The position numbers and the translations under genes were made by a program. A model generated the notes under the pieces. The model ran no database searches and had not been told where the DNA came from. It saw nothing but the letters and a program-made list of their open reading frames with translations. From a virus (Duplodnaviria; Heunggongvirae; Uroviricota; Caudoviricetes), in the IMG/VR virus record IMGVR_UViG_3300035698_029829, positions 71,427 to 135,426 of that record: a stretch of DNA of 64,000 nt. One strand, written 5' to 3'. Positions 1,913-19,528 of this stretch are shown here, piece by piece (positions within the stretch are counted from its first letter, which is position 1; each line of letters starts with the position of its first letter).

Positions 1913-2638
1913 TCACTCTTTCTCATCGTCGGTCTTGTCGTCATCGTCGGTCTTGTCGTCATCGTCGGTCTTGTCGTCATCGTCGGTCTTGTCGTCATCG
2001 TCGGTCTTGTCGTCATCGGTCACATCAGCCATCAGTTTCTCGAACACCTCTGCGAGACCGCCCTCACCACTAATCACCGCTAAAGTTTTCTTCCAGTTAA
2101 GCAGGCCACCGCTACCACTGATACCGAGCTTACGCTTCAATTGGCACGTCGGGCAGTCACACTCACCACCCTCACCCGGCTCCCGCGTAACGAACGCACC
2201 CACAGCAAAGTTAACCGAGAGATCCTTTGCGCCGTTCTCAGCCTCCAACCGCGCAAACATGGCGCGCTTAACTGCCTTGTACACGCTCACCATCTCACTG
2301 TGCGCTTCCTTGATGTTGTCCGTGACACGATCCAACAGTGCGACCTTCACCGCCAACAGTTGAAGATCGGACGACAACGACTGATACTCACTGAAGTCAT
2401 CCGCGCATTCCTCCGGACCCTCTCCCGTGAGCTTCTCGCGCTTCTTTTGGATGTGGTTCAGCAGCTTATTTGCATCTGCCCTAACCATCGCTCCGATATT
2501 TGTGGTCTCGTTAACCACGTTGTTCACGTAGGCAACCAGCTCCTCCATGCTCACCAGATTGTCCTTGAGCACCTGCCCTATCGGTTTCTTCGCATCGGCA
2601 GGTAAGGTCAGCTTATTCTCCGGGGGTTTTATCGTCAT
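1913..2638 (-). CDS. hypothetical protein with C-terminal (DDDDKT)x5 acidic repeat and a CxCPTC motif
   Basis: 241-aa ORF; RBS AAAAAAGGAGA upstream; promoter motif directly upstream. Confidence 0.55.
   Translation of the reverse strand: MTIKPPENKLTLPADAKKPIGQVLKDNLVSMEELVAYVNNVVNETTNIGAMVRADANKLLNHIQKKREKLTGEGPEECADDFSEYQSLSSDLQLLAVKVALLDRVTDNIKEAHSEMVSVYKAVKRAMFARLEAENGAKDLSVNFAVGAFVTREPGEGGECDCPTCQLKRKLGISGSGGLLNWKKTLAVISGEGGLAEVFEKLMADVTDDDKTDDDDKTDDDDKTDDDDKTDDDDKTDDEKE
1921..2030. repeat. 18-bp tandem repeat (tcgtcggtcttgtcgtca) x~6, coding
   Basis: Perfect direct repeats visible in sequence; encode DDDDKT units of CDS 1913..2638. Confidence 0.9.
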
Positions 2639-2686: not shown

Positions 2687-2722
2687 CTATTACCAAAACC
2701 AGAGCAGTTTGTCAAGAGTTTT
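2687..2722 (-). promoter_or_regulatory. conserved sigma70-like promoter (AAAACTCTTGACAAAC-N-TAATAG)
   Basis: Minus-strand TTGACA, 17-nt spacer, TAATAG, then RBS and ATG of gene 1913..2638; member of 13-copy motif family. Confidence 0.6.
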
Positions 2723-2723
2723 A

Positions 2724-4124
2724 TTACAAACCGAGCCTCATTTTTGGGAGGCGTTCGAGATCCAAAAACCGCTCGAAGAGGAGGCCGTGCCGAATCGAGT
2801 CCACCTGCGTGATGCCCGCCAACCACGCCACAAGTGACCCTCCTACAGACCCGCGCCCCGGTCCCCGTGCAATGCCGTGCTCATCGCAAAATTGAGCCAC
2901 GTCTGAGAAAAGTAGCATGTAATCAGCCGACTGGAGCATCAAGATGATCTTCATTTCAAAAGCCAAACGCTCCTCGTAATCACCACGCCGCTCGACGGAG
3001 ATACGGCTGTCCGCCAGACGCACCTCCAATCCATCTCGGCAGCGCCGCCACAGCTCTTCCTCGGCATCCGCCCGCATGGGTAGACGTGGGGTGTGCTCCA
3101 GCCGCATAGGACGTGCTAAACTGGCGATGTATTCTAAGTTCTCCAAACACCCACGAAAAATGTCTTCGGTAAATTCCTCGTTACGGTGAGTCCGATAAAA
3201 AGACGCCCATATCTCAGTCACATCCTTCACAAACAAATCGCGTGCCTCGAACTCCCAAACGTTGTCCTCAGCGGCCAGCGCATCCAGGGACTTGCCCGCC
3301 CGAATGCTGTCAATATTGAGCAAAATCGGATGCAGCTCAGCATCCTCCTTGCGAAGGTAATGGGCATCGCACGAAAAGATGAGTGGAGTCCTGGTCTCCT
3401 TGGCCAATCGAATCAATCGACGGTTCAACTCCACCTGTTTATCCCACTCGATAAGCATTAATTCGATAAAAAAGCGACCTGGAAATGCCTCCTTAAAACG
3501 TCCAACCAGATGCCGCGCCTCGGCCCAGCTATCACGTAAAACCAGTTGGGGTACCTCACCCGCGAAACAGGCGGTTGAGATGACGAGACCCTCGGCGTTA
3601 GCCATCACCCGCTCGTTTGTCGTACGTGCATTCCGGTAAAAGCCGTTCGCCTGCGCCTCGTTGTGAATCTTCAGCAGGTTGTAATAGCCGGTCTGATTAT
3701 GGGCTAGCAATACCAAATGGTAAACCCGCGATAAGGCACGCCGTAGCCTCTCGCGTTCCTTTTTATCCTTGAATATCTTGACGTTCCTCAAGCGCTCCCG
3801 GTCGCGCAACAGATCGTCGCGGTAAGGCGACGTATATGCCTCCAAACCAATCATTGGCAGGAGTCCAGCTTTGTTGGCACGCCAATACAGCTCATAAGCG
3901 GCCCCCAACAACCCGTGATCCGTCGCAGCAACCACCCGCTGCCCCCGTTCCTTCGCCTGTTCGACGAGCCCAGCAACGGGTATCATGCCATCCCGCAACG
4001 AGAACACTGTGTGCAGGTGGGAGTGGAAGAATTTTTCCGGCCGTATCCACTCCGGCATCGGTGGAAGATCAACCACATCAACCTTTGCACGACTCGTCTC
4101 CCTGTTAAGATCCATCGTCGCCAC
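2724..4124 (-). CDS. DNA polymerase III alpha (DnaE) N-terminal fragment: PHP domain, ends just before catalytic PDFDxDF
   Basis: 'HSHLHTVFSLRDG', 'VAATDHG', 'LLAHNQTGYYNL', 'CDAHYL' and 'GPGRGSVGGSLVAWLAGIT..LLFERFLDLER' match DnaE residues ~1-400. The ORF stops where DnaE has the catalytic 'PDFDIDF'. Confidence 0.7.
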   Translation of the reverse strand: MATMDLNRETSRAKVDVVDLPPMPEWIRPEKFFHSHLHTVFSLRDGMIPVAGLVEQAKERGQRVVAATDHGLLGAAYELYWRANKAGLLPMIGLEAYTSPYRDDLLRDRERLRNVKIFKDKKERERLRRALSRVYHLVLLAHNQTGYYNLLKIHNEAQANGFYRNARTTNERVMANAEGLVISTACFAGEVPQLVLRDSWAEARHLVGRFKEAFPGRFFIELMLIEWDKQVELNRRLIRLAKETRTPLIFSCDAHYLRKEDAELHPILLNIDSIRAGKSLDALAAEDNVWEFEARDLFVKDVTEIWASFYRTHRNEEFTEDIFRGCLENLEYIASLARPMRLEHTPRLPMRADAEEELWRRCRDGLEVRLADSRISVERRGDYEERLAFEMKIILMLQSADYMLLFSDVAQFCDEHGIARGPGRGSVGGSLVAWLAGITQVDSIRHGLLFERFLDLERLPKMRLGL

Positions 4125-4677
4125 CCAGTTTCTTCGCTTCCTCCTTAGAAGCCTGTTCTATTCGACTCGCTTCCACCTCTGCATTTGACCGCACGGTTTC
4201 CGGCTCGCTCCCGAAGAACAAAGACGCCAACACCGTACACATCCCCCTGTCATCAAATATACCGAACTCTCCGACGACAAAGCGCGCCACACGCTCCGCT
4301 ATGGAACGCCGCACGTTCGCCGGGAAGACCTCTATATCTACGTCGGCGCGTACCCCTTTGCAGACAGCGCGTGCCAAGTCGAACTGAAGTTTGAACCGAT
4401 GCACCTCCTGTGCAAGACTCGCGCTCTGGTCCGGCTGCACCTCCTGGGTAACACCACGACCGCCGCAAGCTCCGCAGCCTACGCCCCCACAGGAACCACA
4501 AGCATAGAATGTGCGGATCGAGACGCTTTCCTCCTGCACCGACGCCACCATCACGAAGCGCCCTTCCGGAAGTTCAAGTGGTCGAGAGACCGTCTGAGTT
4601 TGAATTTGTGTTTCCATCATCTTGCTCCTGCCTCTCCTCGACGCCAATGACAAGCCGCGCTTCCACGAGCCGCTCAC
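4105..4677 (-). CDS. hypothetical Cys/Gly-rich protein (start uncertain, possibly Met20)
   Basis: 190-aa ORF with 'CGSCGGVGCGACGG'. Confidence 0.4.
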   Translation of the reverse strand: MSGSWKRGLSLASRRGRSKMMETQIQTQTVSRPLELPEGRFVMVASVQEESVSIRTFYACGSCGGVGCGACGGRGVTQEVQPDQSASLAQEVHRFKLQFDLARAVCKGVRADVDIEVFPANVRRSIAERVARFVVGEFGIFDDRGMCTVLASLFFGSEPETVRSNAEVEASRIEQASKEEAKKLGGDDGS

Positions 4678-5596
4678 CTGCCTGCGCCTTCTTTAGCGCG
4701 GCCATCAACCTCCGCGCATGGTCCTTTAGATCGTCATGATGAAACCGCTCCAGGTACTGAGGGTGATCAAAGCAAATCACTCCCCGCTGTTTATCCTCAA
4801 AATGATCCGGTCTATTCCACTTCTTCCACCACGTTATCGCCTGGTCTCCCAACAAAACTACGGCCTCGGGCTGCAACAAATTTAATACTGCGTACTCAGA
4901 AGGCTCATCCCAAAAATTCGCCGTGTTCAAAAAATGCAATTCGCCCTCCTGAAGCTCTGCCTCATCGAGCAGCTTACCGAGGTAATCATCACTACCGCCC
5001 AACGTCCCAAAAGGCGGGGCGAATGGATCATGTGGCGAAGGTGCATCGCCTACTAAGACGACACGAGGAGCAAGCGATCCACTGCCATAGCGTCGGTTAT
5101 TAGCCATTTCATAACGCCGAGCAAACTGGAAGAAGTCATTAGCCTCCCTGGCCCGTAGCTCCAACTCATCCTCATCAAAGGACAATACCATCGACCATGG
5201 CAATCCTTGAAGACCGTTATTAAGCAGGTCAAAACAGCGTTTCCGTGCTACGCGTTCGGCCTCCACCACATCTACTGGCAAACCAGCAACCGCTTCCTCG
5301 TCGAGTTGAGGTTCCGCGTGCAGGATAAAACCGCCGCGAACGAGCACTTCTCGACACCATCGTCGCAGATAGTTGGGAGGAAGCTCAGCCTCCCCCTCCG
5401 CTAATACATTCGGCAGTGTCCACCCATAAACGATAGTATCGCCTCCACCAGCCACCGCATCCAAGTGATACCGCCATAGCGGGATCTCCACAGTAGGACG
5501 GCGTGCACAGGCGACGGCGCGCCAGCCTAAAAAAGACTGGAGTGCAGCGGCTACCTGCGAACCCACTTCTTCTTGTCTACTGAAAACCACGATCAT
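4574..5596 (-). CDS. hypothetical protein
   Basis: 340-aa ORF in the minus-strand gene train. Confidence 0.5.
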   Translation of the reverse strand: MIVVFSRQEEVGSQVAAALQSFLGWRAVACARRPTVEIPLWRYHLDAVAGGGDTIVYGWTLPNVLAEGEAELPPNYLRRWCREVLVRGGFILHAEPQLDEEAVAGLPVDVVEAERVARKRCFDLLNNGLQGLPWSMVLSFDEDELELRAREANDFFQFARRYEMANNRRYGSGSLAPRVVLVGDAPSPHDPFAPPFGTLGGSDDYLGKLLDEAELQEGELHFLNTANFWDEPSEYAVLNLLQPEAVVLLGDQAITWWKKWNRPDHFEDKQRGVICFDHPQYLERFHHDDLKDHARRLMAALKKAQAGERLVEARLVIGVEERQEQDDGNTNSNSDGLSTT

Positions 5597-6875: not shown

Positions 6876-8795
6876 TTAATCGTCCCCTTCGACAGTACCT
6901 TCTAAGGGATGACCCTTCGGCCACTCCAAAAAGACCTTTCGACCCTTGAAGATCACCAGATCTTCTCGCTTTGACGCCGCCCTCGGAGTAAACACCCAGA
7001 TTACGCGCACACCACGATAATCGGGCTCCGGACACTCGCCGTCGGTGAAGATCACCACATGCGGAATATGTTTTTCTCGGCAGTAGTCAATAATCGGCTG
7101 AAAATCCGTCCCACCACGGCCCTTTACACCAAAAACCATCTTATTTGGATCGTCGTACTCGACGATAGCGTTAACCCGAGCGTCGCACTGCACCCAGTGT
7201 AATGGCACTTCCAGTTCCTCTACGATCCGGTCCATCTCACGCACATAAAGCCGCAGCTCATCATCGCTCACGGAACTTGACGTATCAGTCCCCACCACAA
7301 TCTGGTGAACCGCATCCATCTTTTTACCAGGGAAAAGTTCATCGTTGCGTCGAGATGGACGGCGGAAGGACCTCAGCGGTTTGATTTCAAAGAGATCCGA
7401 AACATACCCGTCGAGAAGATTCTGCCAAGGCACCTGCGGCCGAGCGTTGATTTTTTCAAGGACAGCTTCAACCTCCCCGGGAAGCAATCCTCGGCTCTTC
7501 TCATAGCGCGCCTGGAATTCATCGGCAGCCGTTCGGATGAGGCCCTCAATCTTATGTTGCACGTAAGCTCGAAAATCTGGATCTGAGAGCGTCGGCGGTG
7601 TAAATTCAGGGTCCTGTCCTTCACCCGCATCCTCATCAACCTCACCCGCATTTCCACACATGGCTCCATGATCATCCATCGTCGTCTTGCCGAGCGCACT
7701 GTGCTGTTGATCGCGTCCATAAATTTTATCGGCCGAAGCGGTTCGATCACAGTCACCAGCTTGCGGCTCACCATTTCCACCGCTTTGACCCTGTTCGCCC
7801 TGTTCGCCCTTTTGATTCTGTTGATCCTGTTCGCCCTTTTGATTCTGTTGATCCTGTTCGCCCTTTTGATTCTGTTGATCCTGTTCGCCCTGTTCGCCCT
7901 GTTGATCCTGTTCGCCCTTTTGATTCTGTTGATCCTGTTCGCCCTTTTGATTCTGTTGATCCTGTTCGCCTTGTTGATCCTGTTCGCCCTGTTGATCCTG
8001 TTCGCCTTGTTGACTGTCGCCCTCTCTTTTTTCATTATTCTCAAAAAGCGACCATCCCCCACCACCAGACTTTTCAACTGGATCGGGAAGCATCCGAGCG
8101 TAGTCTTCAGCAGCCAACTTCCCAGGCATATCGTAAAGCTGAATGGTTTGAGCGAAAGACCACAGCCAATCGTCAGGGATGTACTGGTTTACCTCCAAAT
8201 CCATTCCTATGCTCATCTTATCGTTCAGTTTTTTGTCATCCCCGAAGATCTGCCCACGCGTAAGATGCCGACACACGAGATGTAACAGCTCGTGTTTCAC
8301 ACACCCCATACGAACTAACGAGGTCTTCTCCAATTGGTCGATCCACATCCGTTCGAAGTCAGTAATGCCCGAGCCTCGAAAATAATCAACAACCTGTTCA
8401 TCATCGTATTCTCGTGCTGCGGGCAAGTTCTCCATATTATCGCCACAGAGGCTCATATAAGTCCAGAAAGCAGGATTCACCACCATCCACAGATCACGGC
8501 CTTCAACAGCAACGCAGCAGGTAGGCAAGTACCTTTTCACCTTTACCCACTTCTTGGTTTTCAGAGTGCGGCCCCAGGCACGAGTAAAAACGCCGAACCG
8601 AAATTGAAGACGATTGTAAAAAAGCCCGTACCACGGGTCTTTACGGATTAATCGCCCAATTGCCTGATCGAAACTGTATTTCAGGCGTCGCTCATCATTC
8701 ATGGCCTTTCTCATCATTGTGATATAGGTCGGCAAGTCCCGCATATCGAATTTCATGCCGGGCGGCGGAGCGTCGATGAGCCTGGCTGTTTCCAT
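6876..8795 (-). CDS. metallopeptidase-like (HELLH) + Q/E-rich repeat + C-terminal VWA-domain protein
   Basis: 'HELLHLVCRH' HExxH; C-term 'VGTDTSSSVSD...VIFTDG' MIDAS/VWA; directly downstream of the MoxR-like ATPase. Confidence 0.65.
   Translation of the reverse strand: METARLIDAPPPGMKFDMRDLPTYITMMRKAMNDERRLKYSFDQAIGRLIRKDPWYGLFYNRLQFRFGVFTRAWGRTLKTKKWVKVKRYLPTCCVAVEGRDLWMVVNPAFWTYMSLCGDNMENLPAAREYDDEQVVDYFRGSGITDFERMWIDQLEKTSLVRMGCVKHELLHLVCRHLTRGQIFGDDKKLNDKMSIGMDLEVNQYIPDDWLWSFAQTIQLYDMPGKLAAEDYARMLPDPVEKSGGGGWSLFENNEKREGDSQQGEQDQQGEQDQQGEQDQQNQKGEQDQQNQKGEQDQQGEQGEQDQQNQKGEQDQQNQKGEQDQQNQKGEQGEQGQSGGNGEPQAGDCDRTASADKIYGRDQQHSALGKTTMDDHGAMCGNAGEVDEDAGEGQDPEFTPPTLSDPDFRAYVQHKIEGLIRTAADEFQARYEKSRGLLPGEVEAVLEKINARPQVPWQNLLDGYVSDLFEIKPLRSFRRPSRRNDELFPGKKMDAVHQIVVGTDTSSSVSDDELRLYVREMDRIVEELEVPLHWVQCDARVNAIVEYDDPNKMVFGVKGRGGTDFQPIIDYCREKHIPHVVIFTDGECPEPDYRGVRVIWVFTPRAASKREDLVIFKGRKVFLEWPKGHPLEGTVEGDD
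7789..8015. repeat. 9/18/30-bp nested tandem repeats (ctgttcgcc / cttttgattctgttgatc), coding
   Basis: Encode GEQDQQ(NQK) units inside CDS 6876..8795. Confidence 0.85.
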
Positions 8796-10237
8796 TATCG
8801 CGTACCGCTTTGAAGCGCGGTTACGTCCACATCATTGTCAGGAACTAGCTGGCCCGCCGCCGCGTTCTCTCTGCGAGTTTTCACGTCTCGAACCACGCTG
8901 ATAATAGGATTCCAGTAAATGCGGGTAGGAAAACTTTCTAAAAGATTGACCCAGAACGGCGGCAATTTGTCGATGATTACCTGCTTCACCGATCCTGGAG
9001 CCAGCAGCAGAGCTTGAAAGAAATTACCAAAATCGTCCCACACGTTCTTAGACATCATCTTGACTTTGCCGCCGACAGCCGCGCACTGCGGGTTGGAGCA
9101 CGATTGGTTTTTCAGTCCGCCGGGCACATTTTTCCCACAATAAACACATACCGGAGTATCACGAACGTAGTGTCCGGCTCCGCCGCGCGAGTTGAAAACG
9201 GTCTCGGCGTGTTCCAATGCCTTCTCAAAGGATTCCATGAGCGCAGGCAACTTTGAGTCCCCGTAGTTGGACCACTCTTCGATACGACGACGAACATCTG
9301 GATCAAGTCGATCTGGCGAATGATCACCCGAACCAGGCATTCGTTTGAACATCTCGACGGGGTCGATGGGATTAAAATCCTTCTCATAAAATGTCATAAA
9401 AGTGGTCTTCTCGGCGGTGCCGATAAGTCCCTCAATGATCGACCAGGCAGCAGCCGAATAGGAGTCCTTCCCGAGCACTTCAAGTGCCCCTAGCGTCCGC
9501 GACACAAATTCCCAAGCACGTTCATTAGGTTTCACCAAGGAAAGAATCAACTCGGCGAACCAGCCTATGGGCGACGGGTTCAAGGTGTTAATACCGCCTC
9601 GCTCAACGTGCGCGATAACCGACGAATGTACCTTCTCACGCCGCGCCCACGTCACCCACGCTTCCTTGCTGGAAAGCACCTGAACGTGCGTGAAGCGTGA
9701 AAAGAAAGCCGCACCGAACTGCGTCAGGCCAAACTCATCCTCGTCCGCCGGGTTACAGGCGGCGATGACCATCGTGTCGGGGTGAAACTGGTGTGTGAAG
9801 AGTCTTTTTTCCAACACAAGTTGGTGCACGGCGTTTATTTCAAAGCGACGACCACGGTTGGCCTCATCCAAGAAAATGATGACCGGCTCTTCCAGGCAAG
9901 CGGTCATCCACTGGGGCATCGCATAGGCGGTCACCCAGTTATCGGCATAAGCTGCAAGTAACGCAGGGATAGAGTCAGCCGACGCCGCGCCATTGAAGGC
10001 GAGAAGGACTTCCTTGAAGCCCTCCTTAGCCGCCGACTCCAAAATCGGAATCGCTTTCGGCATTCCAATCAGATCAGTAGCCTCAACTTGAGCGAGAATC
10101 AACGTGATGACTCGACGCTTTACCTCATTCCCGAACTCATAAACGACGGACGATTTGCCAACTCCGTGCTTGCCCCACAGCATCAGATTGATCCTGGCTT
10201 CCATCGCCAATCGCAACTTCGACTTGAGTGTTAGCAA
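8795..10237 (-). CDS. MoxR-like AAA+ ATPase
   Basis: Walker A 'LWGKHGVGKSS'; Walker B-like 'IIFLDEANRG'; TTG start with AAGGGGGAG RBS; promoter motif upstream. Confidence 0.7.
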   Translation of the reverse strand: MLTLKSKLRLAMEARINLMLWGKHGVGKSSVVYEFGNEVKRRVITLILAQVEATDLIGMPKAIPILESAAKEGFKEVLLAFNGAASADSIPALLAAYADNWVTAYAMPQWMTACLEEPVIIFLDEANRGRRFEINAVHQLVLEKRLFTHQFHPDTMVIAACNPADEDEFGLTQFGAAFFSRFTHVQVLSSKEAWVTWARREKVHSSVIAHVERGGINTLNPSPIGWFAELILSLVKPNERAWEFVSRTLGALEVLGKDSYSAAAWSIIEGLIGTAEKTTFMTFYEKDFNPIDPVEMFKRMPGSGDHSPDRLDPDVRRRIEEWSNYGDSKLPALMESFEKALEHAETVFNSRGGAGHYVRDTPVCVYCGKNVPGGLKNQSCSNPQCAAVGGKVKMMSKNVWDDFGNFFQALLLAPGSVKQVIIDKLPPFWVNLLESFPTRIYWNPIISVVRDVKTRRENAAAGQLVPDNDVDVTALQSGTR

Positions 10238-10285
10238 AGGCTCCCCCTTAACAGTTTAGGACGCCGTTATTGACGACCTAAAATT

Positions 10286-10321
10286 GTTTTACTAAAACCC
10301 ATTGGGTTTGTCAAGAGTTTT
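10286..10321 (-). promoter_or_regulatory. conserved sigma70-like promoter
   Basis: TTGACAAACCCAATGGGTTTTAGTAAAAC on minus strand upstream of 8795..10237. Confidence 0.6.
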
Positions 10322-10330
10322 GTTATCGAT

Positions 10331-11623
10331 CTACGCAGGTTTTGTGTACTTATCAACCCATTTGCCCAACAAATCCCGCTTTGCCTGCGAAACCGCAGGG
10401 ACCGCCGTCTGATCAAAGAGGAGTGAAATGTCCGGCGGCGACGCCGGAACGGGCTCATCCATCGACCTACACAAATCGGACAACACCCACTTGCCTACCG
10501 GTACGGGCACGGAAGAACCGAGCACACGCAAGCCAGGCAGATAGTAATTGCCCACGTAATAGTCATCAGGTAAACCAAACAACCTGGCCACTTCGCGCAA
10601 GGTCAACGGCCGGTCGTGCGCCGGATGTATGTAGCGCTCGACACTGCCAATGGTCGGGGCTGGGAGTCCTCTAAGCAGGCGCACCGGCAATTGACTTTTC
10701 AACAGCCCTTTCCTGAGAAGAAGGTGCCCCCGCGCGTCTTTTTCAATCACAATGCTGCCTTCGTTGATGCGTCTCCGTATCCCCTCCGGCCACTTACTCA
10801 GGTCTTCCACTTCAGAGAGTGCCTGGCCCTCGGCCAACAACGAACAGGAGCCCCACAGCAAATCGGATGCAAGTGACGATTTGGCCCGCTGCTTCATCTT
10901 TTGAGGTACGATGTGACCTTCGATTTCTCGACCCTCCAGAGCCATGATCGTAGCGTAGCGCCCGTCGAAACTGCATTTCAAATCAAAAAGGTCGGCGATG
11001 GCCGCCCAACTGGTGGGCAGCTCGTCCGACCGGATGCCCTGCGGGTAAGGTATCGTCGGATTGAAAAAGAAATCGCGCGTCCCTATTGCCACGGTGATCT
11101 TCCGGTCCTGGGCCACCCCGTGCAATACAGCATTGGTCGTCATCGTCTTCCAGGTGTACTCCGACAACTGGCTCGCCAATAAATTAAGATGCCGCTGGCC
11201 CCGGCTATAGAGCATCCCCGTTCCGAAGATGACGACCGCGCGCGGGCGCAAATCTTTCGCTATGCGCACGAAGTCATCGCCGTCCTCACCTAGAAGGCTA
11301 CCGATCTCAAAGCCCGCATCCGATGCTTTCGCCGCACGGTGCATTCCCTTTGATCCGCTGAATTGGGGTTGACCGAACAAGATATCGATCTTCTGCTCTC
11401 GAAGGCTTGCGAGGGGATCATCCCACCGGCGTTCACCATCCACGAACACGCGTTCCACTCCGAAAACGCGCTCGCATGTTCGCGCAAATATGTTATTGGA
11501 ACGGATACGCTTGCCGCCTCGCGCATCCAACAGCGCAAGCACCTTTATCCCCACTCCTTCAGCCGCCAAAGCCAAGCTACCACCAAAGGCGTGCAGGCCG
11601 ACGGCAGTTTTTATTGCCGACAT
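10331..11623 (-). CDS. DNA cytosine-C5 methyltransferase-fold protein, apparently lacking catalytic PCQ Cys and ENV motif
   Basis: Motif I-like 'LHAFGGSLALAAEGVG'; motif IV position reads 'FGQPQFSGS' (no Cys); motif IX/X-like 'LTLREVARLFGLPDDYY' and 'GSSVPVPVGKWV'. Alignment by eye to M.HhaI-type enzymes. Confidence 0.5.
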   Translation of the reverse strand: MSAIKTAVGLHAFGGSLALAAEGVGIKVLALLDARGGKRIRSNNIFARTCERVFGVERVFVDGERRWDDPLASLREQKIDILFGQPQFSGSKGMHRAAKASDAGFEIGSLLGEDGDDFVRIAKDLRPRAVVIFGTGMLYSRGQRHLNLLASQLSEYTWKTMTTNAVLHGVAQDRKITVAIGTRDFFFNPTIPYPQGIRSDELPTSWAAIADLFDLKCSFDGRYATIMALEGREIEGHIVPQKMKQRAKSSLASDLLWGSCSLLAEGQALSEVEDLSKWPEGIRRRINEGSIVIEKDARGHLLLRKGLLKSQLPVRLLRGLPAPTIGSVERYIHPAHDRPLTLREVARLFGLPDDYYVGNYYLPGLRVLGSSVPVPVGKWVLSDLCRSMDEPVPASPPDISLLFDQTAVPAVSQAKRDLLGKWVDKYTKPA

Positions 11624-11625
11624 CT

Positions 11626-12108
11626 TCAGTCTCCTTTTTCCCGTTTTTTCGCCATATCGACGACGTTCTCACCACGCTCCAAGGATTTACCCCTGCGATT
11701 CCATACCTCATATAGTTCCTTGACCGGTATCTCCGGTTTCTTGGCGACGGCTACTACGAACTCCGGCAAGCACGCCAGATACTTCTGCCCCAGAAAGAAG
11801 AAAGGCGATGCACCACGATGAATAACCCACTGCCCCACCTTTAGCGGGTGGTCGGAATTCCAACCCGGCATCTCATGCACCTTCTCGCCCAGAGCCACAA
11901 CCTCGCAGAGGTTAGTGACCCAGTGTCGTTCATTCACGCCCGGCGCAACGATGTTTCCCTGCACCACGAAATCCTTGGGTGGCCCAAAGAGACCGCCCTT
12001 CTCGGCGTCGACCTCTCGAAGCAGGACAATCTGCTCGTTGGGGACCAGCTCGTGTTCCTTCGGCAACCTGAAACGCCACAATTTGTCTTCGCCCTGCATC
12101 GCGTACAC
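11626..12108 (-). CDS. hypothetical protein, possibly GroES/Gp31-like co-chaperonin fold
   Basis: 'LVPNEQIVLLREVDAEKGGLFGP' resembles the GroES 'VLVKR.E.E.KTAGGI' pattern (weak); promoter and RBS upstream. Confidence 0.35.
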   Translation of the reverse strand: MYAMQGEDKLWRFRLPKEHELVPNEQIVLLREVDAEKGGLFGPPKDFVVQGNIVAPGVNERHWVTNLCEVVALGEKVHEMPGWNSDHPLKVGQWVIHRGASPFFFLGQKYLACLPEFVVAVAKKPEIPVKELYEVWNRRGKSLERGENVVDMAKKREKGD

Positions 12109-12121
12109 CTTTCTTACCTAC

Positions 12122-12157
12122 TTCATAGTAAAAATAAGTAGGTTTGTCAAGAGTTTA
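12122..12157 (-). promoter_or_regulatory. conserved sigma70-like promoter
   Basis: TTGACAAACCTACTTATTTTTACTATGAA on minus strand; spacer contains 7-bp inverted repeat CCTACTT/AAGTAGG. Confidence 0.55.
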
Positions 12158-12163
12158 TTCTCG

Positions 12164-14989
12164 TTATCCGCACACGCTGTACCCACACTCGGGGCACTTG
12201 TAACAGCCTCCCTCTAAAATAAGACGACCTTTGCATCCACTGGTTGTACACCTCGGCCGAATCACATTAAGGGTGCGTTCAGGGAGCACTTCATTGGGAT
12301 CGTCTTGATGAGCATCAGCCAATAATCCCTTGAAGCATTGCGCCAGCTCATAGTGAAAGTCCTTACCTCGACTACACTTTTCCAGGTTACGGATGATCTC
12401 TTCAGCCGACGTACCCCGCCGCAAGAGATTCGAGGTAAGCCGAGCCGTCAAATTGCGCGACTTCACAACCTCCAAGAATTCTTCCGGTATCCCCGCATCG
12501 AAGTTCAAGAACACCTCGATAGGCCATTTCCCATCCAAAAGCGTTACAGTCGCAAAAATCTTCCCGCCTCTAATGGCTGGGTCGGTAATACGAAAAACAA
12601 CCGAGGCTTCCTTATCGCTGAGTGGCAACTTTGGGATTGCCTTCGGGAGGATGCGCCGCCCCTCGTCCACCTCCATTTGATCATAGATTTGTTCAGTCTT
12701 CGAATGATGCCGGTAGACGGTCACCCCGAAACACCCCATCTCTCGCGCTTTACGAAAAACGCGAAGCACATCCTCCACCGTCGCGCTCTCCGGCAGGTTT
12801 ACCGTCTTCGAAATGCCATTGTGCACCACCCGCTGACAGACGGCTTGCATGAGTACGTGATCGTCCGGCGTCATAGTAAAGGCTGCCACGAAGTACGGCG
12901 GCAAATTCTTCAAAGGTATCTCTACCTCCCCATTCAGCACCTTATTACGATCAAGGCCCAACACGCGTTCGGCATAATCCAACACTACTTGAGGGTAATA
13001 CTTGCGCGTCACGTAAACAGTGCCGCCGGTACTGGTGGTTTCAGCGTGCTTCCTCTTGAAAGGCGTAAGCTGGTAGAGTGGCTCAATACCCGAAGACTCA
13101 GTGCAGTTGCAAATGAAACTCGTAGTGCCGGTGGGCATCAGAAAAGTGGTATGACAATGCCGAATACCCTCTTTCTTGATGCGCCGAAACAAATCAAGCC
13201 AAGAGTCTATCGAAATCCGCCCGCACTCGATCAATCCAGCTGCGAAAGCGAAGCCACCCTTCTTGAAACGCTCGACCACCGACTGCCGCGAAATGGTCTC
13301 AGTCTTGAGATCGCCTAACTCCAAATCACTAAAGTCCCAACGCGACCCCCGAATCGACGGAAAGCTACCACGCAAAGGATCATCACCCTTCCAAGGCGAA
13401 AAGACATCTTCCGGAGTCCACATGAACGCCGAAGAATCGTCATGAGCGTTGTGCCCAGCAGCTTCCCAAACCGTCATCTCTGAGTGAGGTTTTTCACTCT
13501 CCTTCTTGTGTTTATCGCGCCACGTACCCCAAGCAACCCGTAACTTGTCGGGATCAAACCTGCCTACTGTATTTTTTTGTTTTCGCGCTTCCACAGCCAG
13601 GCTAACCGACTCATCCATGCTCCAAAAGGTCACACGCTCCAATAACTCGGACGCCATCGCTCGCCCTTCCTCGCCATTATAGCGCAGGCCAAGCCGGATC
13701 AGCACATTGGCTAAACCAAAAACGCCCAAACCGATAGGCCGAATGAGCTGCGTTATCAGGGTGGATTCCAAGGTGGGTAAGCGATTCACATCAACCACAC
13801 GATCAAGGGTGCGCGTCATAAGGCGCGTCGTTTTCTCCAGCGTCTCCAAATCCATTTCCCACGCCCACTTCTCACCGCCTTCAATAAACCGCACGTGTGC
13901 ATCAAGATTGATGGAGCCAAGGTTGCATGTTGGGCCACCATTGTCGAAAGGCGGCAGCCCCGAGGGCTCATCATTGTACTCATCGACGCCAGGCAAGGGC
14001 GCGTAAAATTCACCGCACGGATTTGGGTTACGGATGTAGCCGACGTTCGGTACGAAGTTGCGCCGATTCACCTGGTCAATGAAGATGACGCCGGGACAAC
14101 CAGCCTCCCACGCCTCCTCAGCAATGGAACGAAGCACCTTCTGAGCGGATACGGTATCATAAATTACGCCTCCCCAGTGAAGATGCCACAGGCCCTCTTT
14201 AGCCTGACGCACCGCTTGTTCTCCGTACTGGTCGCGCATCTTCTCCGAAGTATGCTCGGGCAATTCCGCCCTCTCCTCGGTGCCACCAGTGGGTCGTCGC
14301 CAACCGTTCGGCGCGATCACGCCCTTATCATCCACGCAACTGAACCAATCTTCGGGACCAGATCCTTCCAGATCGGCCAGGCGAAACAACGCGTCCGGCG
14401 CTGCCACTGACAGGTTTATCGAGCTAAGGTGAGTACCGTCTCCGGAGCGCTGCGCGTCTGATTTGGCGGAAACGAAGGACCAAACATCGGGATGCTCCGC
14501 CCGAAGGACGGCGATTTGAGCAGCCTTTCGAAGCCCTCCGCCGCTCACCGCCTTACCAGCCCAATCATAGAAACCCATGAATGAGACCGGACCCGTGCTC
14601 ACGCCGCCGGTCTTTTCGATGGTGGCCCCAGCCGGTCGAAGCGTCGAAAAGTCTATCCCCACGCCCCCGGCCTTCTTGAAGGTGTCGGCAGTCAGAGTGA
14701 GGGTGGCCATGATGCTCTTGAGGCTGTCGTGAACCGGATAGATGAAGCAACTCGACAGCATCCCCAACCTGCCCCCTGCATTCATAAGAGTGGGGGAAGC
14801 CATGATAGCGCGACGATTGAGGAACGCCTCAAATGCCTCCTTCCGCAGCTTCTCCATACCCTTTTCGCCAAACAACGCCCCCGACACGCGTTCACAGAGC
14901 GCCACCCATTTTTCACCGGGTAGATAGTACCTCTTCTCCAAAAGCTCCTCTATGTACGGCTCCAGGCGAATGTCCTGTTGTCCTTTCAT
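12164..14989 (-). CDS. nrdJ: ribonucleotide reductase, class II (B12-dependent) type
   Basis: 'SPTLMNAGG', 'SSCFI', 'NPCGEF' catalytic blocks; C-terminal zinc ribbon 'CKGR..CYKCPECG'. Confidence 0.8.
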   Translation of the reverse strand: MKGQQDIRLEPYIEELLEKRYYLPGEKWVALCERVSGALFGEKGMEKLRKEAFEAFLNRRAIMASPTLMNAGGRLGMLSSCFIYPVHDSLKSIMATLTLTADTFKKAGGVGIDFSTLRPAGATIEKTGGVSTGPVSFMGFYDWAGKAVSGGGLRKAAQIAVLRAEHPDVWSFVSAKSDAQRSGDGTHLSSINLSVAAPDALFRLADLEGSGPEDWFSCVDDKGVIAPNGWRRPTGGTEERAELPEHTSEKMRDQYGEQAVRQAKEGLWHLHWGGVIYDTVSAQKVLRSIAEEAWEAGCPGVIFIDQVNRRNFVPNVGYIRNPNPCGEFYAPLPGVDEYNDEPSGLPPFDNGGPTCNLGSINLDAHVRFIEGGEKWAWEMDLETLEKTTRLMTRTLDRVVDVNRLPTLESTLITQLIRPIGLGVFGLANVLIRLGLRYNGEEGRAMASELLERVTFWSMDESVSLAVEARKQKNTVGRFDPDKLRVAWGTWRDKHKKESEKPHSEMTVWEAAGHNAHDDSSAFMWTPEDVFSPWKGDDPLRGSFPSIRGSRWDFSDLELGDLKTETISRQSVVERFKKGGFAFAAGLIECGRISIDSWLDLFRRIKKEGIRHCHTTFLMPTGTTSFICNCTESSGIEPLYQLTPFKRKHAETTSTGGTVYVTRKYYPQVVLDYAERVLGLDRNKVLNGEVEIPLKNLPPYFVAAFTMTPDDHVLMQAVCQRVVHNGISKTVNLPESATVEDVLRVFRKAREMGCFGVTVYRHHSKTEQIYDQMEVDEGRRILPKAIPKLPLSDKEASVVFRITDPAIRGGKIFATVTLLDGKWPIEVFLNFDAGIPEEFLEVVKSRNLTARLTSNLLRRGTSAEEIIRNLEKCSRGKDFHYELAQCFKGLLADAHQDDPNEVLPERTLNVIRPRCTTSGCKGRLILEGGCYKCPECGYSVCG

Positions 14990-15549
14990 TTTTTATTCTT
15001 CTCCCATCGTGGTTTAGATGGCCAATATGATCTTCCCTTAATAGGCGCATCAGGTGACGACACCCCCAGCAAACACCGGTACCCGCAGTTCAGACACTCA
15101 GGGTTTTCCTCTTTGCCACCAGGATTCGAAATGATCACTATCCGCACGCCTCGATCTTTGTTAAGCGAATGCAGCTGATCGACGATCTCCCTCAACTCGG
15201 CCGTATTTAACGGCTGCCAACGAGCCTCGCCGTCGCAGAGGCGCTCGATCTGGATGAAGCTCTTCTGCCGCATATCCGGCAACTCACCATAATCGTTATC
15301 GTCAAAGGGGCCAAAAAATTGCTCAAAAGTACCCTCCTTCTCATCGCCCCTGCGCTCGCGGAGCGCCACAATGGCCGCCCATCGAGCGGCCTTTGCCATC
15401 TGAAGGTTGTACCCCAGATAAAGAGCGACCCGCGCCACCGCGCGCGGTGACCTCGCGTCGCGGGCGATCAATGCCAAAGGGGTCCCGGCAATAGGCGCTC
15501 CCAGCTCCAACAGTTGCGAGGTAGTATGCTTGTTTCTTCTCTCTCTCAC
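14986..15549 (-). CDS. hypothetical protein
   Basis: 187-aa ORF overlapping RNR start by 4 nt. Confidence 0.45.
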   Translation of the reverse strand: MRERRNKHTTSQLLELGAPIAGTPLALIARDARSPRAVARVALYLGYNLQMAKAARWAAIVALRERRGDEKEGTFEQFFGPFDDNDYGELPDMRQKSFIQIERLCDGEARWQPLNTAELREIVDQLHSLNKDRGVRIVIISNPGGKEENPECLNCGYRCLLGVSSPDAPIKGRSYWPSKPRWEKNKK

Positions 15550-15614
15550 GATGTCCTTTCAGTTCAGGTCACCTGTTAGCTTACCAGGGAGGAAGTTTGG
15601 GGCGCATCAAAAAT

Positions 15615-15983
15615 CTAGTGGGGTTCCTGGCGCAGCCAAGCCGCGAGAAGAAGGGTATGGCAAAACCGGCCATCAGAGCAAAAACAGAGCAATATCAACT
15701 CCTCGCAGTCCCGCGTCAGATCGAAAAGCCGCTGCACTGCCCCGGAAGCCCGAGCAGCCAAGTAGATGTCCCGATAGCGAGCAGCGTAGGCCGCCAGCGA
15801 CATCTCACCGGATTTCACCCCCATCACCATCTGCCAAGTAGGGGCGAAAAGCTTACCGATGCCTACCCCGAATTTCGCCGTCACATCTAAGACGACGGTG
15901 CCGGTATTAGGCTCGGTTTCCGATAACTTGGGGAGTTTCAGCTTCTTTGCACGAGCGAGTTGAGCGCGGGAGATCAACATCAA
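15615..15983 (-). CDS. hypothetical protein
   Basis: 122-aa ORF. Confidence 0.4.
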   Translation of the reverse strand: MMLISRAQLARAKKLKLPKLSETEPNTGTVVLDVTAKFGVGIGKLFAPTWQMVMGVKSGEMSLAAYAARYRDIYLAARASGAVQRLFDLTRDCEELILLCFCSDGRFCHTLLLAAWLRQEPH

Positions 15984-16739
15984 TCAAAGCTCGCCATGGG
16001 ACAGCGCGGTATCGTCAACGGGCACCGGTTCTCCGAGCAACTCTAAGATAAAGCGTCGCTCCTTCTCATCCACAAAGAACTTCTTGGCGAAAGACCGCTT
16101 CACCCCCTTCTCGGACTGTCTGAAGCGTATCACAGCCAACCGGCCTCCACGTGCCACCGACGGTGCATCTGCCACATAAGCAAACGGCGTATCCTTGGCA
16201 ATAAGATCGCGGTCGCGTATCACACGAAGTCCCCGAAACATATCGCCTTCCTTGAGGACTTCGTCGTCCACTTTCAGACAGAGATCGCCCGGAATGATGA
16301 AGCCGCCGCCCTTCACGCGGCACCGAGCTTTAGAGGCGGCATCACCAAGGAGAAGCTGTAGCTGTATCCGCGTCATTTGTACTGTAAAGACAGAAAGAGG
16401 CACCTCATTCGCCTTCGACAACCCCGGCAACGGCACCAACTCATCCAGCCTCTGAGACACATCCGACAACACCTGCTGAGCGATGTCTAAACTCACAACC
16501 GCCTCGGGACCAGTGAATTCAATCTTCAAGCTCTCCTTGTCAAGCTTATCCAGCACTGCCGGTGCCCACGCCTCTGGCAGCACAGGTCGACAATCTTGGC
16601 AAGCCAACAGCACAGCTTTCGTTTCCTTGCTCTTCCGGACAAAGATCTCGCGCGGTCCCTGAGTAGGCGCAAGGTCTGTCCCACAAGCTACGCATCTGGC
16701 CTTATCACTCGACGGAACTTTGATCGCTTGTAATGTCAT
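15984..16739 (-). CDS. hypothetical protein
   Basis: 251-aa ORF; 'CVACG...CQDC' N-terminal Cys pairs. Confidence 0.5.
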   Translation of the reverse strand: MTLQAIKVPSSDKARCVACGTDLAPTQGPREIFVRKSKETKAVLLACQDCRPVLPEAWAPAVLDKLDKESLKIEFTGPEAVVSLDIAQQVLSDVSQRLDELVPLPGLSKANEVPLSVFTVQMTRIQLQLLLGDAASKARCRVKGGGFIIPGDLCLKVDDEVLKEGDMFRGLRVIRDRDLIAKDTPFAYVADAPSVARGGRLAVIRFRQSEKGVKRSFAKKFFVDEKERRFILELLGEPVPVDDTALSHGEL

Positions 16740-17310
16740 TTTCTGTTGCCCCAGATATTTTTTTGTGTTCTGTCCCTTCGATCTTTGGTAGTTCTTTCTC
16801 CGCCGTCTTACCTATGCCTCTCAGGCGCTCAGTCAGAGAAGCCCAAATGTTGAGCTTATCGAGCACGAACACAGCGACTTTGAGTAGATCGCCAACGGCG
16901 TCGGAGAACTGTAACCACAGCAAAGACAAAGAACCAGGTCTCTTCCAAGCAAACGCATCATAAAAGTACGGCGTCTCGCCAGGGCCTTGTTCCATAAGCG
17001 ACGCCCTCAACATCTCATCATCGTAGGCTTTCCTGATAGGAGGCGTCTTGGGCTTTACCGAATGCGTCTCGCCGTACTTATCCACGCGCAGCTCAGCCTG
17101 GTTCATAACCTGAAGCAGCGAAATGGTGTCGAAGGCATGTTGCGCGCCGCACGACGGGCAATAGGTGAAGGAGGAATCGAAGATTGCCTCGCAGTTAGGA
17201 CATAGCCGCGCACGCCGGAGCAATGTCCAAAAGGCCGTATAACCCGGCCTTTCACGCACCGAATTATGAAACAGGAATTTGGGGCTACTCGCACCTTGTT
17301 GTTCATTCAC
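16705..17310 (-). CDS. hypothetical zinc-ribbon protein
   Basis: 'CPNCEAIFDSSFTYCPSCG'. Confidence 0.5.
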   Translation of the reverse strand: MNEQQGASSPKFLFHNSVRERPGYTAFWTLLRRARLCPNCEAIFDSSFTYCPSCGAQHAFDTISLLQVMNQAELRVDKYGETHSVKPKTPPIRKAYDDEMLRASLMEQGPGETPYFYDAFAWKRPGSLSLLWLQFSDAVGDLLKVAVFVLDKLNIWASLTERLRGIGKTAEKELPKIEGTEHKKISGATENDITSDQSSVE

Positions 17311-17313
17311 GCT

Positions 17314-17604
17314 TTAATCTCCTTCTTTCCCACGTTCACCCGCAGTGCGCTGTGCCTCGCCCAGCGCGTGCGATAGCGCCGCCAGGCAAGAGGTGCACAG
17401 ATCATCCGCCTTCGCCCGAATAGTAGTCACATGGCGATGACAAACAGAACATCGGGGTCGAATACCCGTGCTCTTCCCCCCGAGATCCTCCACGCGGAAG
17501 TTAAAATTATGATAAGCACTAGAGCCGGTCGACCGCTCACCTTTAGAAATGTGCACGGTCGACCGGCTTCCATCTGATTTCCTAACATCGTGTCGCGTCT
17601 CCAT
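17314..17604 (-). CDS. hypothetical Cys/His-rich small protein
   Basis: 96-aa ORF 'CSVCHRH..CTSC'. Confidence 0.4.
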   Translation of the reverse strand: METRHDVRKSDGSRSTVHISKGERSTGSSAYHNFNFRVEDLGGKSTGIRPRCSVCHRHVTTIRAKADDLCTSCLAALSHALGEAQRTAGERGKEGD

Positions 17605-17650
17605 AATCCTCGTCCTCCTACTCTTAACTTACCAGACGAGGAAACTGGCG

Positions 17651-18466
17651 TCACGAAAAGAACGAGTTTTGGCTGGCCGCAACCGTCGTCTGGCTCGCGC
17701 GAATAACGCTTGCCGAGAGCATTCCGGTCATCTTCTTGATCGAAGCGTGCACGGCTGTATCGTCCTTAAAATCCAGCTCCAGCACGTTCGGAAAGCCGAT
17801 GTCACCCGCCATTTTCTGCGGCGAGAACTGGTCGTAACCCTTGAAACCGACCAAAGCCAGCACCGCGATTTCCTCCTGAGTGAGAGCCTGGCTAAGATTT
17901 TTCACCTCGGCTGTGGTAGCCCGGGAAGAATTGTCCTCGCCATCCGTGAAAACCACGGTGATAAGGCGCACGCGGTAACCATTATCCATCAGATCCTGTG
18001 CGTAGGCACGCGCGGAGGTGAGGGCGGACTTAACGGCGTCGTACTCGGCGGTCATGCCGCTGGGCGAGTAGGCGTCGAAGTCGTCGGTCACGTCGGCGAT
18101 CTTCTTGTGGGCGAACATTAACTGATGCTGCGTGTTGAAGGTCCACCCGGAGACCAGGATGGCGTCCGACTGCTTGTAGCCCTGAAGGTCGGTAATGATG
18201 GACTTGAGAGCCGCCACCACCAGATCGCGGTGCGGCGACATGGAGGAGGACTCATCCAGGATGAAGGTGAGGAGAATCGCTTCCTCTGTATCAAGGGTAT
18301 CCGGCGAAACGGCCTGCACGGTCGCCATCACCGTCTGATCGTCCAAACCGTCGATCAGGAGGTCGGAGATGTTTTTGTTCATAAATCCACCGGAGACCGC
18401 CTGCGAGAGCTTATCCTTCAGGTCAGCCACCGAGGTACTGCTGCGGAGATCTGGTTTGTTTTTCAT
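17651..18466 (-). CDS. von Willebrand factor A (VWA) domain protein
   Basis: MIDAS 'ILDESSSMS'; '...VVFTDGEDN'. Confidence 0.65.
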   Translation of the reverse strand: MKNKPDLRSSTSVADLKDKLSQAVSGGFMNKNISDLLIDGLDDQTVMATVQAVSPDTLDTEEAILLTFILDESSSMSPHRDLVVAALKSIITDLQGYKQSDAILVSGWTFNTQHQLMFAHKKIADVTDDFDAYSPSGMTAEYDAVKSALTSARAYAQDLMDNGYRVRLITVVFTDGEDNSSRATTAEVKNLSQALTQEEIAVLALVGFKGYDQFSPQKMAGDIGFPNVLELDFKDDTAVHASIKKMTGMLSASVIRASQTTVAASQNSFFS

Positions 18467-18500
18467 AGCTCGTTATCCTTTCTCGACTCGTAGACTCAGA

Positions 18501-19511
18501 TTACTGAGCTACGTCGGCCGAAGTGGTGAGTTGGAAGCCCTGCGACTGGAAGAAGTCGAAACGGGCTTTGGCGATGGCCGGGAAATCAATCATGCCACCC
18601 TGTCCATCCGGAATCGGCGACACCGGCGAGGTGCAGTCGGTCAGGATGCGAACCTTGGACAGCGCATCCGGCGAGTTCGCGGCGAACTCCTCGTACAGCT
18701 GCTCCAACGTCTCCAACACGCAATGGCTGGACGCTTCTCCGGCGATCCATATTTCGTCGTAATCGGAGAGGACCTTGAGGAACCCCTGGTTCAGACCGTG
18801 AGCGGTCGGGAACTGGGAGTCCGGAACCAGGACCTCGGGCTTAAGAATGCCGTACATTTCGGTACGCGGCTCGTTACCCTTCCGCAGGATGTTCACCTGG
18901 GAACGGCGCGCGGCGCTGTGGAAGATGATCGCCTCGGCGACGATGGGTACCATCGCGGAACCCGCGCTGATTTCCAAGCAGTGCTCCGGCCAGATGGCCA
19001 ACAACTTCTTGCTGGTTTCCGCGAGCTTCGCCGGATAATCGGCCAACCACTGGGGGTCGAACAGCGGGCTCACTTTACCCGATTTGATGTCTTCATCGGT
19101 GATGACGCGCCAAGGCGTCACCGGGCCACCGGTCGCATTGTCTTTCCAACACAGGCGGTGGAAAATCTGGTAAAGGTAATGGGTGTCCAACGACGCGAAA
19201 ACGCGGGTGATCTGATCACCATACTTGTAGATCAGCTCGGCGACGCGCTGCATGTCGCCAACCGCGCCAGGCACGGACAGTGATCCCGGGAACTCGGCGT
19301 CTGCCGGGAATACGAAGTCGCACTGCGGGTCGATCATCAACAGAGCAACTTGCTTGCCCTTCTTCTTATCGCGGGCGGAAGGCTCCCAGGTCGACTGAAG
19401 GGCGGCGGCGATGATGGTGTCCTCGTTCGGGCGGAACATTTTGCCCGCCCGGTCGGGATCGCTGGCCATCGCGTCTCGGAAAAACTGCGGAAACGGATTC
19501 GGTTTACTCAT
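18501..19511 (-). CDS. isochorismatase/nicotinamidase-family cysteine hydrolase
   Basis: 'ALLMIDPQCDF' (cf. 'LLVIDMQNDF'), 'ASLDTH', conserved Cys region 'GEASSHCV'. Confidence 0.55.
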   Translation of the reverse strand: MSKPNPFPQFFRDAMASDPDRAGKMFRPNEDTIIAAALQSTWEPSARDKKKGKQVALLMIDPQCDFVFPADAEFPGSLSVPGAVGDMQRVAELIYKYGDQITRVFASLDTHYLYQIFHRLCWKDNATGGPVTPWRVITDEDIKSGKVSPLFDPQWLADYPAKLAETSKKLLAIWPEHCLEISAGSAMVPIVAEAIIFHSAARRSQVNILRKGNEPRTEMYGILKPEVLVPDSQFPTAHGLNQGFLKVLSDYDEIWIAGEASSHCVLETLEQLYEEFAANSPDALSKVRILTDCTSPVSPIPDGQGGMIDFPAIAKARFDFFQSQGFQLTTSADVAQ

Positions 19512-19528
19512 CTGAAACTCCTCTTGGC

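Follow-up and report, generated by a model that had tools for sequence, protein, structure and literature searches.

In cyanobacteria, dnaE, which encodes the alpha chain of DNA polymerase III (Pol III), is divided between two distant genes, with a split much further downstream than the one considered here, and intein halves join the two products covalently by trans-splicing. This split dnaE and its naturally split intein are cited in PMC3919608. A second division of Pol III alpha was described in group 2.2 jumbo phages by Iyer et al. 2021 (Viruses 13:63; PMC7824862), where the pieces are encoded by distantly located genes, one for an N-terminal nucleoside triphosphate (NTP)-binding protein and one for a C-terminal Mg2+- and DNA-binding protein. 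This "minimal" version lacks the PHP and other Pol III domains, has diverged strongly, and occurs alongside a family B polymerase (PMC7824862). Here, we analyze a 64,000-nt stretch of a Caudoviricetes phage (positions 71,427 to 135,426 of IMG/VR record IMGVR_UViG_3300035698_029829; referred to as the window), in which the gene at 2724..4124 on the minus strand encodes a stand-alone DnaE N-terminal protein of 466 amino acids (aa), called DnaE-N below, that comprises a PHP domain and the first part of the palm, the front 40% of a replicative DNA polymerase of bacterial type. Our preferred explanation, which we hold to be moderately probable, is that DnaE-N is the N-terminal subunit of a noncovalent two-piece DnaE whose partner gene is unlinked.

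DnaE-N shares its boundary with the N-terminal piece of the jumbo-phage polymerase, both being separate NTP-binding proteins that end before the Mg-binding strand. However, it is set apart from that version by description, having a full PHP domain with intact ligands, being recognizable by Pfam, and keeping a substituted copy of the catalytic strand. Moreover, neither the partner nor the family B polymerase of that system was seen with DnaE-N, the former across ~83 kb of the genome and the latter in the window; the 83 kb are made up of the window, the 9.1 kb that the public contig L015 of the same phage adds beyond position 1, and the 9.8 kb that L026, likewise public, adds beyond position 64000. 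The PHROG profile phrog_11127 ("DNA polymerase", 171 positions) matches aa 358-454 of DnaE-N and reaches the end of the profile; this match is compatible with N-terminal units of the jumbo-phage type, which may belong to the same family. With the cyanobacterial gene, the proposed system would share the placement of the pieces in two distant genes, whereas DnaE-N has no intein.

The nine-residue PHP metal site is conserved in PHP-proficient DnaE1 and PolC (PMC3919608). DnaE1 of Thermus aquaticus and Mycobacterium tuberculosis has the same nine-residue site as DnaE-N, but there the PHP domain is covalently joined to the polymerase. E. coli Pol III epsilon places the proofreader on a separate polypeptide, as is proposed for DnaE-N, but has the DnaQ fold and not the PHP fold. 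In PHP phosphoesterases of the YcdX and RNase AM type, the PHP domain is the whole protein, whereas DnaE-N carries an extra 150-aa palm segment. We found no characterized free-standing protein or proofreader made of a PHP domain plus a palm stub in the literature. Surveys of bacterial C-family polymerases dropped fragments without an intact active site (PMC3919608).

DnaE-N joins a PHP domain to the nucleotide-binding part of the palm

The DnaE-N gene starts with GTG, and public gene calls begin three codons later, at an ATG, giving a 463-aa protein (P0001) that is 100% identical. The PHP domain spans aa 31-314 (3183..4034, minus strand), which align to T. aquaticus alpha 6-266, with the Pfam PHP match at aa 34-223 (E 1.1e-32). 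The NTP-binding N-terminal part of the Pol-beta-like palm spans aa 358-458 (2751..3053, minus strand), where the Pfam palm family DNA_pol3_alpha (PF07733) matches with profile positions 3-98 of 260 only (E 1.6e-24), and Pfam finds none of PF17657, PF14579, or PF01336, which cover thumb, fingers, HhH, and OB parts, in DnaE-N; the window as a whole has none either. Searching PDB with phmmer aligned the protein over aa 31-459 to residues 3-411 of M. tuberculosis DnaE1, over aa 134-459 to residues 81-397 of E. coli alpha, and over aa 384-459 to the same residue numbers of T. aquaticus alpha. A first-pass annotation had aligned the protein by eye with DnaE residues ~1-400 and pointed to a GPGRGS-type motif and to LLFERFL; the Pfam and PDB matches bear this out, GPGRGSVGGSLVAWLAGIT and LLFERFL are both found in DnaE-N, and the similarity extends past the PHP domain into the palm at aa 358-458.

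Structure prediction gives the same picture. The AlphaFold model of the DnaE-N monomer has a mean predicted local distance difference test (pLDDT) score of 87, with a PHP part mostly above 90 and a helical N-terminal palm; the last ~20 residues are of low confidence, and the tail at aa 459-466 falls below 50. When this model was searched with Foldseek, the best matches were Pol III alpha chains (E ~1e-25), and RNase AM and other stand-alone PHP enzymes came at E 4e-6 or worse, with only the PHP part covered.

We refer to DnaE-N with its homologues P0001-P0005 and loci L020, L022, and L024 as family 1. All nine PHP metal ligands are present in DnaE-N (H36, H38, D45, H70, E95, H136, C186, D253, and H255), as the first-pass annotation had proposed to verify, and they are invariant in five family-1 members as well as in an alignment of 41 DnaE sequences. 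The GPGRGS motif lies at aa 421-426 (2847..2864, minus strand); together with R452 in LLFERFL, it forms what we take, from Pol III alpha structures, to be the element of C-family polymerases that binds the triphosphate of the deoxynucleoside triphosphate (dNTP). G421, G423, R424, G425, S426, S430, and R452 are invariant across the 41 DnaE sequences. Within family 1, 68% of the columns from the GS loop to the tail (aa 420-466) are invariant, versus 28% in the PHP domain.

The protein ends in a conserved tail, LPKMRLGL (aa 459-466; 2727..2750, minus strand), which corresponds to the catalytic beta strand SMPDFDVD. In an ungapped MAFFT register that agrees with phmmer (E. coli 397 = DnaE-N 459), the tail stands opposite V-S-M-P-D401-F-D403-V, so that R463 occupies the position of E. 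coli D401 and G465 that of D403, and DnaE-N ends one residue before D405. Across family 1, the D401 position is Arg, Lys, or Glu, never Asp, and the D403 position is Gly, Asp, or Ala. The first-pass annotation had the protein stop one motif before the catalytic aspartates; it does end short of D405, but the strand itself is kept, and it is the aspartates that are substituted. Because of R463 and G465 at these positions, the end before D405, and the lack of the D555 region, DnaE-N cannot polymerize alone, having none of the catalytic carboxylates. This calls for caution in annotation, since pipelines name such genes "DNA polymerase III alpha" although every catalytic carboxylate is lacking.

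A shared end point across a lineage of large phages

Eight homologues, P0001-P0005 (42-100% identity) and those at L020, L022, and L024, end at the same residue as DnaE-N, plus or minus one, with the tail consensus R-[LIV]-P-[KR]-M-[RKE]-L-[GDA]-L and the ending ..FERFLD(L/V)(E/N)R(L/I/V)P(K/R)MxLxL*. The tail codons of the relatives differ synonymously, and past the stop codon, only a -35 box is conserved. These patterns show that the truncation is a conserved architecture under purifying selection at the protein level and not damage. The gene order around family 1 is also kept, with a methylase, a MoxR-like AAA protein (AAA_5), a DUF2201/VWA protein, a small overlapping gene, and then DnaE-N; a ribonucleotide reductase (RNR) and a DHH gene are also near in some of the loci. 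Because one relative lies on a 311,727-bp contig, we regard family 1 as a lineage of large phages.

That the gene is a sequencing or assembly error, or a recently truncated dnaE in decay, is extremely improbable. Many short DnaE "proteins" in metagenomes are indeed contig-end fragments or frameshifted calls, but an identical DnaE-N protein is present in independent assemblies, the eight homologues stop at the same codon, and the segment is under strong purifying selection. Furthermore, the TAA stop (2724-2726) is followed directly by a second TAA (2721-2723) and further on by an in-frame TGA, and no DnaE-like sequence occurs downstream in any frame, so the frameshifted continuation that would have pointed to an error is not there.

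Family 1 members sought in IMG/VR and GTDB genomes were not found, and 50,697 phage records held no close relative at useful identity; a few more members came from JGI metagenomes, all with the same stop. The "PHP domain-containing protein" of Bacillus phage PK-3 is a full-length DnaE. An exhaustive HMMER search brought up further 50%-identity clusters of N-terminal halves of 420-465 aa that share the end position and have tails of the pattern x-hydrophobic-x-hydrophobic.

Related N-terminal halves are accompanied by C-terminal halves

Two other clades of uncultivated phages carry N-terminal halves like DnaE-N together with a C-terminal half. In family 2 (L006-L008), a 506-aa N-half with the tail ..AKYKIDFDGF.. 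is followed 0-215 nt downstream by a C-half of 803-807 aa that carries PF07733, finger, and HHH_6 matches. In the P0250 clade (L033 and L034; contigs up to 230 kb), a 461-aa N-half with the tail ..KVQMKIDL* is followed 420 nt downstream by a 737-aa C-half. Like family 1, both clades have a PHP domain, an N-terminal palm with intact GPGRGS, a tail of the form [MY]K[IL]D[LF], and Lys at the D401 position, and they lie on large phage contigs with RNR nearby. They differ from family 1 in having the C-half (fingers, HHH_6) 0-420 nt downstream, and their identity to DnaE-N is only 27-33%; in family 1, by contrast, the 10 kb or more flanking the gene on each side contain no C-half in relatives with enough flank, nor do the ~83 kb available here. 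The tails of family 1 (MKLDL, MRLGL), the P0250 clade (MKIDL), and family 2 (YKIDF) are evidently homologous.

The two halves in these clades have decayed in different places. The N-halves of both keep GPGRGS and the arginine; family 2 has Lys at both aspartate positions, and in the P0250 N-half, as read by eye, D401 corresponds to Lys and D403 to Asp. The C-halves of both have a degenerate GS region (NSNN or NKNN for GRGS) and no FERF arginine, with PD(I/V)DxDF intact. The halves overlap in the Pfam palm profile, the N terminus of the C-half covering PF07733 positions 18-120 and the N-halves positions 3-98. This largely complementary decay, with GS left on the N-half and DxD on the C-half, suggests that both chains are needed for one active site.

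The same spot of dnaE is broken in several ways among phages: by split inteins, by an intervening endonuclease, and by two-protein splits. L009 (on a 250-kb contig; 9398-21398) and L010 (9395-18271) have split inteins after GPGRG, and L009 has another after PDID; in both, the DnaE pieces are kilobases apart, with free-standing endonuclease-like genes in between, and a related split DnaE piece, P0121, lies on a 732-kb contig. At L029 (10001-14940), a LAGLIDADG endonuclease open reading frame (ORF) stands between ..IPD|YLIA* and MDIQ.., and joining the two restores PDMD, so the insertion is likely intron-like. The split-intein DnaE of huge phages (L009, P0121, and L010) thus resembles DnaE-N in that the N-terminal part is apart from the rest and the breaks fall at the GS and DxD motifs, but the intein-split pieces contain Hint domains and are presumably joined through protein splicing, whereas DnaE-N has no Hint domain.

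DnaE-N could, by the same token, be exon or extein 1 of an interrupted gene whose full length is restored by RNA or protein splicing, and this region is a hot spot for such elements in other phages (the split inteins of L009 and L010 and the LAGLIDADG ORF of L029). We consider this very unlikely here. DnaE-N has no Hint or Intein_splicing match, although the L009 pieces do, and there is no Cys, Ser, or Thr at the would-be junction. The tail and stop are maintained as protein, with synonymous changes, over 42-69% identity, and the D401 position is never Asp in family 1. Downstream come a promoter-like site and unrelated genes, and no exon 2 or C-extein was found within 11.8 kb downstream or 60 kb upstream. 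Thus, the intein or intron option raised in the first-pass annotation falls away, and for the DnaE-N gene, the splicing reading and the artifact or pseudogene reading are both effectively excluded.

A search for the C-terminal half

No DnaE C-terminal part was detected in the window. The best hits of tblastn with bacterial and phage DnaE C-parts had E values of ~0.6-0.8; two profile hidden Markov models (HMMs), for which the positive controls L008, L033, L009, and L029 scored 224-1151 bits, found none among all six-frame ORFs; and hhalign of 144 window ORFs reached a top probability of 3%. Pfam and PHROG scans of ~80 ORFs revealed no DNA polymerase in the window, family B included. Three large ORFs, of 655, 637, and 607 aa, were considered as the C-half and, when read by eye, are not polymerase-like. 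The first-pass annotation was therefore right that the polymerase core is absent here, and the complementary ORF starting at the PDFD palm motif, which it had suggested might be elsewhere in the genome, was not found in the ~83 kb. A C-half gene, if there is one, must lie beyond 60 kb on one side and beyond 11.8 kb on the other.

Two-piece DnaE or autonomous nuclease

If DnaE-N is one of two pieces, it would supply the PHP domain as a metal-dependent 3'-5' exonuclease, probably active, and the first palm subdomain, which would hold the triphosphate of the incoming dNTP through the GPGRGS loop and Arg452, and it would end in a short amphipathic strand derived from the catalytic beta strand, with the aspartates gone. 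A second polypeptide would supply the Mg-binding aspartates (PDxDxDF and the D555 equivalent), thumb, fingers, HhH, and OB parts, from a gene lying outside the window, beyond the distances given above. The two proteins would assemble noncovalently, with neither an intein nor RNA splicing, and the conserved C-terminal ~25 residues of DnaE-N would be the docking element. The active site may be composite, with GS on one chain and DxD on the other, or the N-half may be a mere accessory of a self-sufficient C-half. We infer that the partner gene is in this genome, that both proteins form one enzyme, and that the PHP domain proofreads.

The first-pass annotation had also offered a domesticated PHP exonuclease or phosphoesterase, and such an autonomous PHP nuclease is the competing explanation that deserves most attention, although we regard it as unlikely. 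The DnaE N terminus would then have been taken over as a 3'-5' exonuclease or phosphoesterase in a genome with no C-half, the palm stub being a dead scaffold or a DNA- or nucleotide-binding module and the tail a tether to the clamp or another polymerase. The nine intact PHP ligands, the replacement of the aspartate positions in every family-1 member, and the predicted disorder of the tail in the AlphaFold monomer all agree with it. However, the GS loop and Arg452 are invariant and lie inside the most conserved segment, and a PHP nuclease on its own could do without them. In addition, N-halves with homologous tails are paired with C-halves in two clades. The tail itself, [KR]-M-x-L-x-L-COOH, may resemble the hexapeptide clamp motif QLxLxL, such as that at the C terminus of E. 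coli Pol IV; against the forms QL[SD]LF and QLxLxL, only the hydrophobic positions fit, and the tail lacks the Gln of clamp-binding motifs and is a plain homologue of the catalytic strand.

We favor a split DnaE over a pure nuclease because constraint is strongest in the palm stub and not in the PHP domain, because G425, S426, and R452 are invariant, and because the homologous N-halves examined in their genomic context have partners. The conserved last ~20 residues, of low confidence in the monomer model, fit a segment that would become ordered on a partner. For the split-gene option of the first-pass annotation, the conserved truncation, the paired halves in two clades, and the published precedent thus speak in its favor, and the second half, not found in the ~83 kb, speaks against it.

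Several other observations weigh against a two-piece enzyme. DnaE-N retains its own copy of the catalytic strand, in which the aspartates have given way to basic residues; a simple "cut" model does not explain why the copy was kept, and a dead palm remnant would also fit. PHP-less and apparently complete DnaE-like polymerases exist in phages (P0197 and that of Microbacterium phage TinyMiny), and therefore, the polymerase does not strictly need a PHP subunit. The C-half is missing not only from the window but also from L015 (tblastn, HMMs, and hhalign), and L026 shows no polymerase by profile HMMs and a precomputed Pfam list, the only searches applied to it. Nor is there a C-half within 10 kb on either side of the relatives (L001-L005, L019-L024, and L032), five of which were covered by tblastn, the HMMs, and hhalign. 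The nuclease explanation accommodates the absence from both the ~83 kb and these flanks. Protein-database searches with phage C-half queries linked no C-half to family-1 contigs, the second of these searches being dominated by bacterial DnaE. It is also conceivable, though we find it quite doubtful, that there is no C-half at all and that DnaE-N is an autonomous PHP proofreader acting in trans, its pseudo-palm holding the primer end or nucleotide and its tail docking on the clamp or on a polymerase outside the C family.

What is new, in our fairly probable reading, is a split phage Pol III alpha with the PHP domain retained on the N-terminal unit and the partner encoded by an unlinked gene. 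If the two-piece DnaE is true, a C-family replicase has been divided within the fold of its active site, the break separating the nucleotide-binding loop from the metal-binding strand, and its halves have become unlinked; an active site made of two polypeptides bears on the evolution of Pol-beta-like polymerases and would offer a natural split site for engineering. A stand-alone nuclease, if that is true instead, would represent a novel type of factor for proofreading or repair, and a trans-acting PHP proofreader would be an enzyme class not yet described.

Neighboring genes

Directly after the DnaE-N stop lies a promoter-like site (2687..2715, minus strand) with a perfect TTGACA (2710-2715), 17 nt, and TAATAG (2687-2692). 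L020 and L022 share its -35 box and the 17-nt spacer length. A scan for the sigma-70 consensus misses it, since its -10 hexamer has a final G. The site probably serves the next gene, at 1913..2638 on the minus strand, which follows DnaE-N after an 85-nt spacer and a ribosome-binding site and encodes a 241-aa protein with an acidic DDDKT repeat tail and no Pfam or PHROG match. A promoter and an unrelated gene after DnaE-N, as first annotated, are thus what we see, the promoter as a candidate. The C terminus of the 241-aa protein consists of (T/K)DDDDK repeats encoded by a perfect 18-nt tandem repeat of 5.3 copies (1923-2018).

On the other side, a small gene (4105..4677, minus strand; 170-190 aa) overlaps the start of DnaE-N by 20 nt and also overlaps the gene upstream of it. 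Its product, which belongs to no Pfam or PHROG family, has a double CxxCGGxG zinc-ribbon motif, CGSCGGVGCGACGGRG, of DnaJ-like type. L001, L003, and L004 each have a small overlapping gene at this place, weakly similar to that of the window (E 1e-13 to 1e-2). The zinc-ribbon protein might be a partner or assembly factor of DnaE-N.

Two genes upstream of DnaE-N, at 4574..5596 on the minus strand, is a gene resembling the uracil-DNA glycosylase (UDG) superfamily, with a Pfam UDG match of E 3.6e-4 that is below the gathering score. In L009, a UDG domain is fused to the DnaE N terminus (Pfam UDG E 4e-9), and L010 has a similar N terminus by eye only, so that L009 shares with DnaE-N the association of a UDG-like module with the DnaE N terminus. 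A direct tie between the gene at 4574-5596 and the L009 domain was considered and dropped: the two share the Pfam family, but direct BLASTP is not significant.

The wider context of DnaE-N is a module of replication and nucleotide metabolism, with RNR, RNase HII, the UDG-like gene, a DHH gene, and a cytosine methylase. Within this region, the MoxR-like AAA ATPase (8795-10237, minus strand) is paired with a DUF2201 metallopeptidase/VWA protein (6876-8795, minus strand), a pair that is conserved upstream of DnaE-N in all relatives. The DUF2201/VWA protein carries a long GEQDQQ(NQK) repeat that derives from 27/54-nt tandem repeats at 7799-8013. The RNR large subunit of the window (12164-14989) has 941 aa and no intein match, whereas the copy in L003, a 69%-identity relative, has 1368 aa with a Pfam Intein_splicing match (L003 1-1624); the RNR intein insertion is thus variable within the lineage.

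Other elements of the window and its flank

A CRISPR array at 59003-59566 consists of nine repeats of 36 nt, GTTGCGATTACCCCTCAAACGGAGGGTGTTCACACC, which contain an internal hairpin and of which the first two are degenerate; its eight spacers all measure exactly 30 nt. At 225 nt from the array, a 511-aa TnpB-like gene (59791-61326, minus strand) matches the PADLOC Cas12u4 (E 1e-54) and Cas12f models, and no cas1 or cas2 was seen near the array. The array with this Cas12f/V-U4-like gene looks like a phage-borne miniature type V system. Further TnpB- or Cas12f-like ORFs, of 381 aa (29159-30304, minus strand) and 454 aa (45386-46750, plus strand), had no adjacent array detected and are presumably IS605-family elements. 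TnpB is also found near the DnaE-N gene in the relative L001.

Signaling-type genes are clustered at 17651-22762 on the minus strand, with the 637-aa protein, which by eye has a kinase-like N terminus and a zinc ribbon, a PP2C-type phosphatase (21830-22762), and a VWA protein (17651-18466), and they may form a signaling module. Beyond position 1 of the window, downstream of RNase HII, L015 (10720-20723) carries genes of NAD-related and RNA-repair types, encoding a QRPTase_N-domain protein, an RlaP nucleotidyltransferase, a NUDIX protein, an enzyme of the CCA-adding/poly(A) polymerase family, and an NAD synthase.

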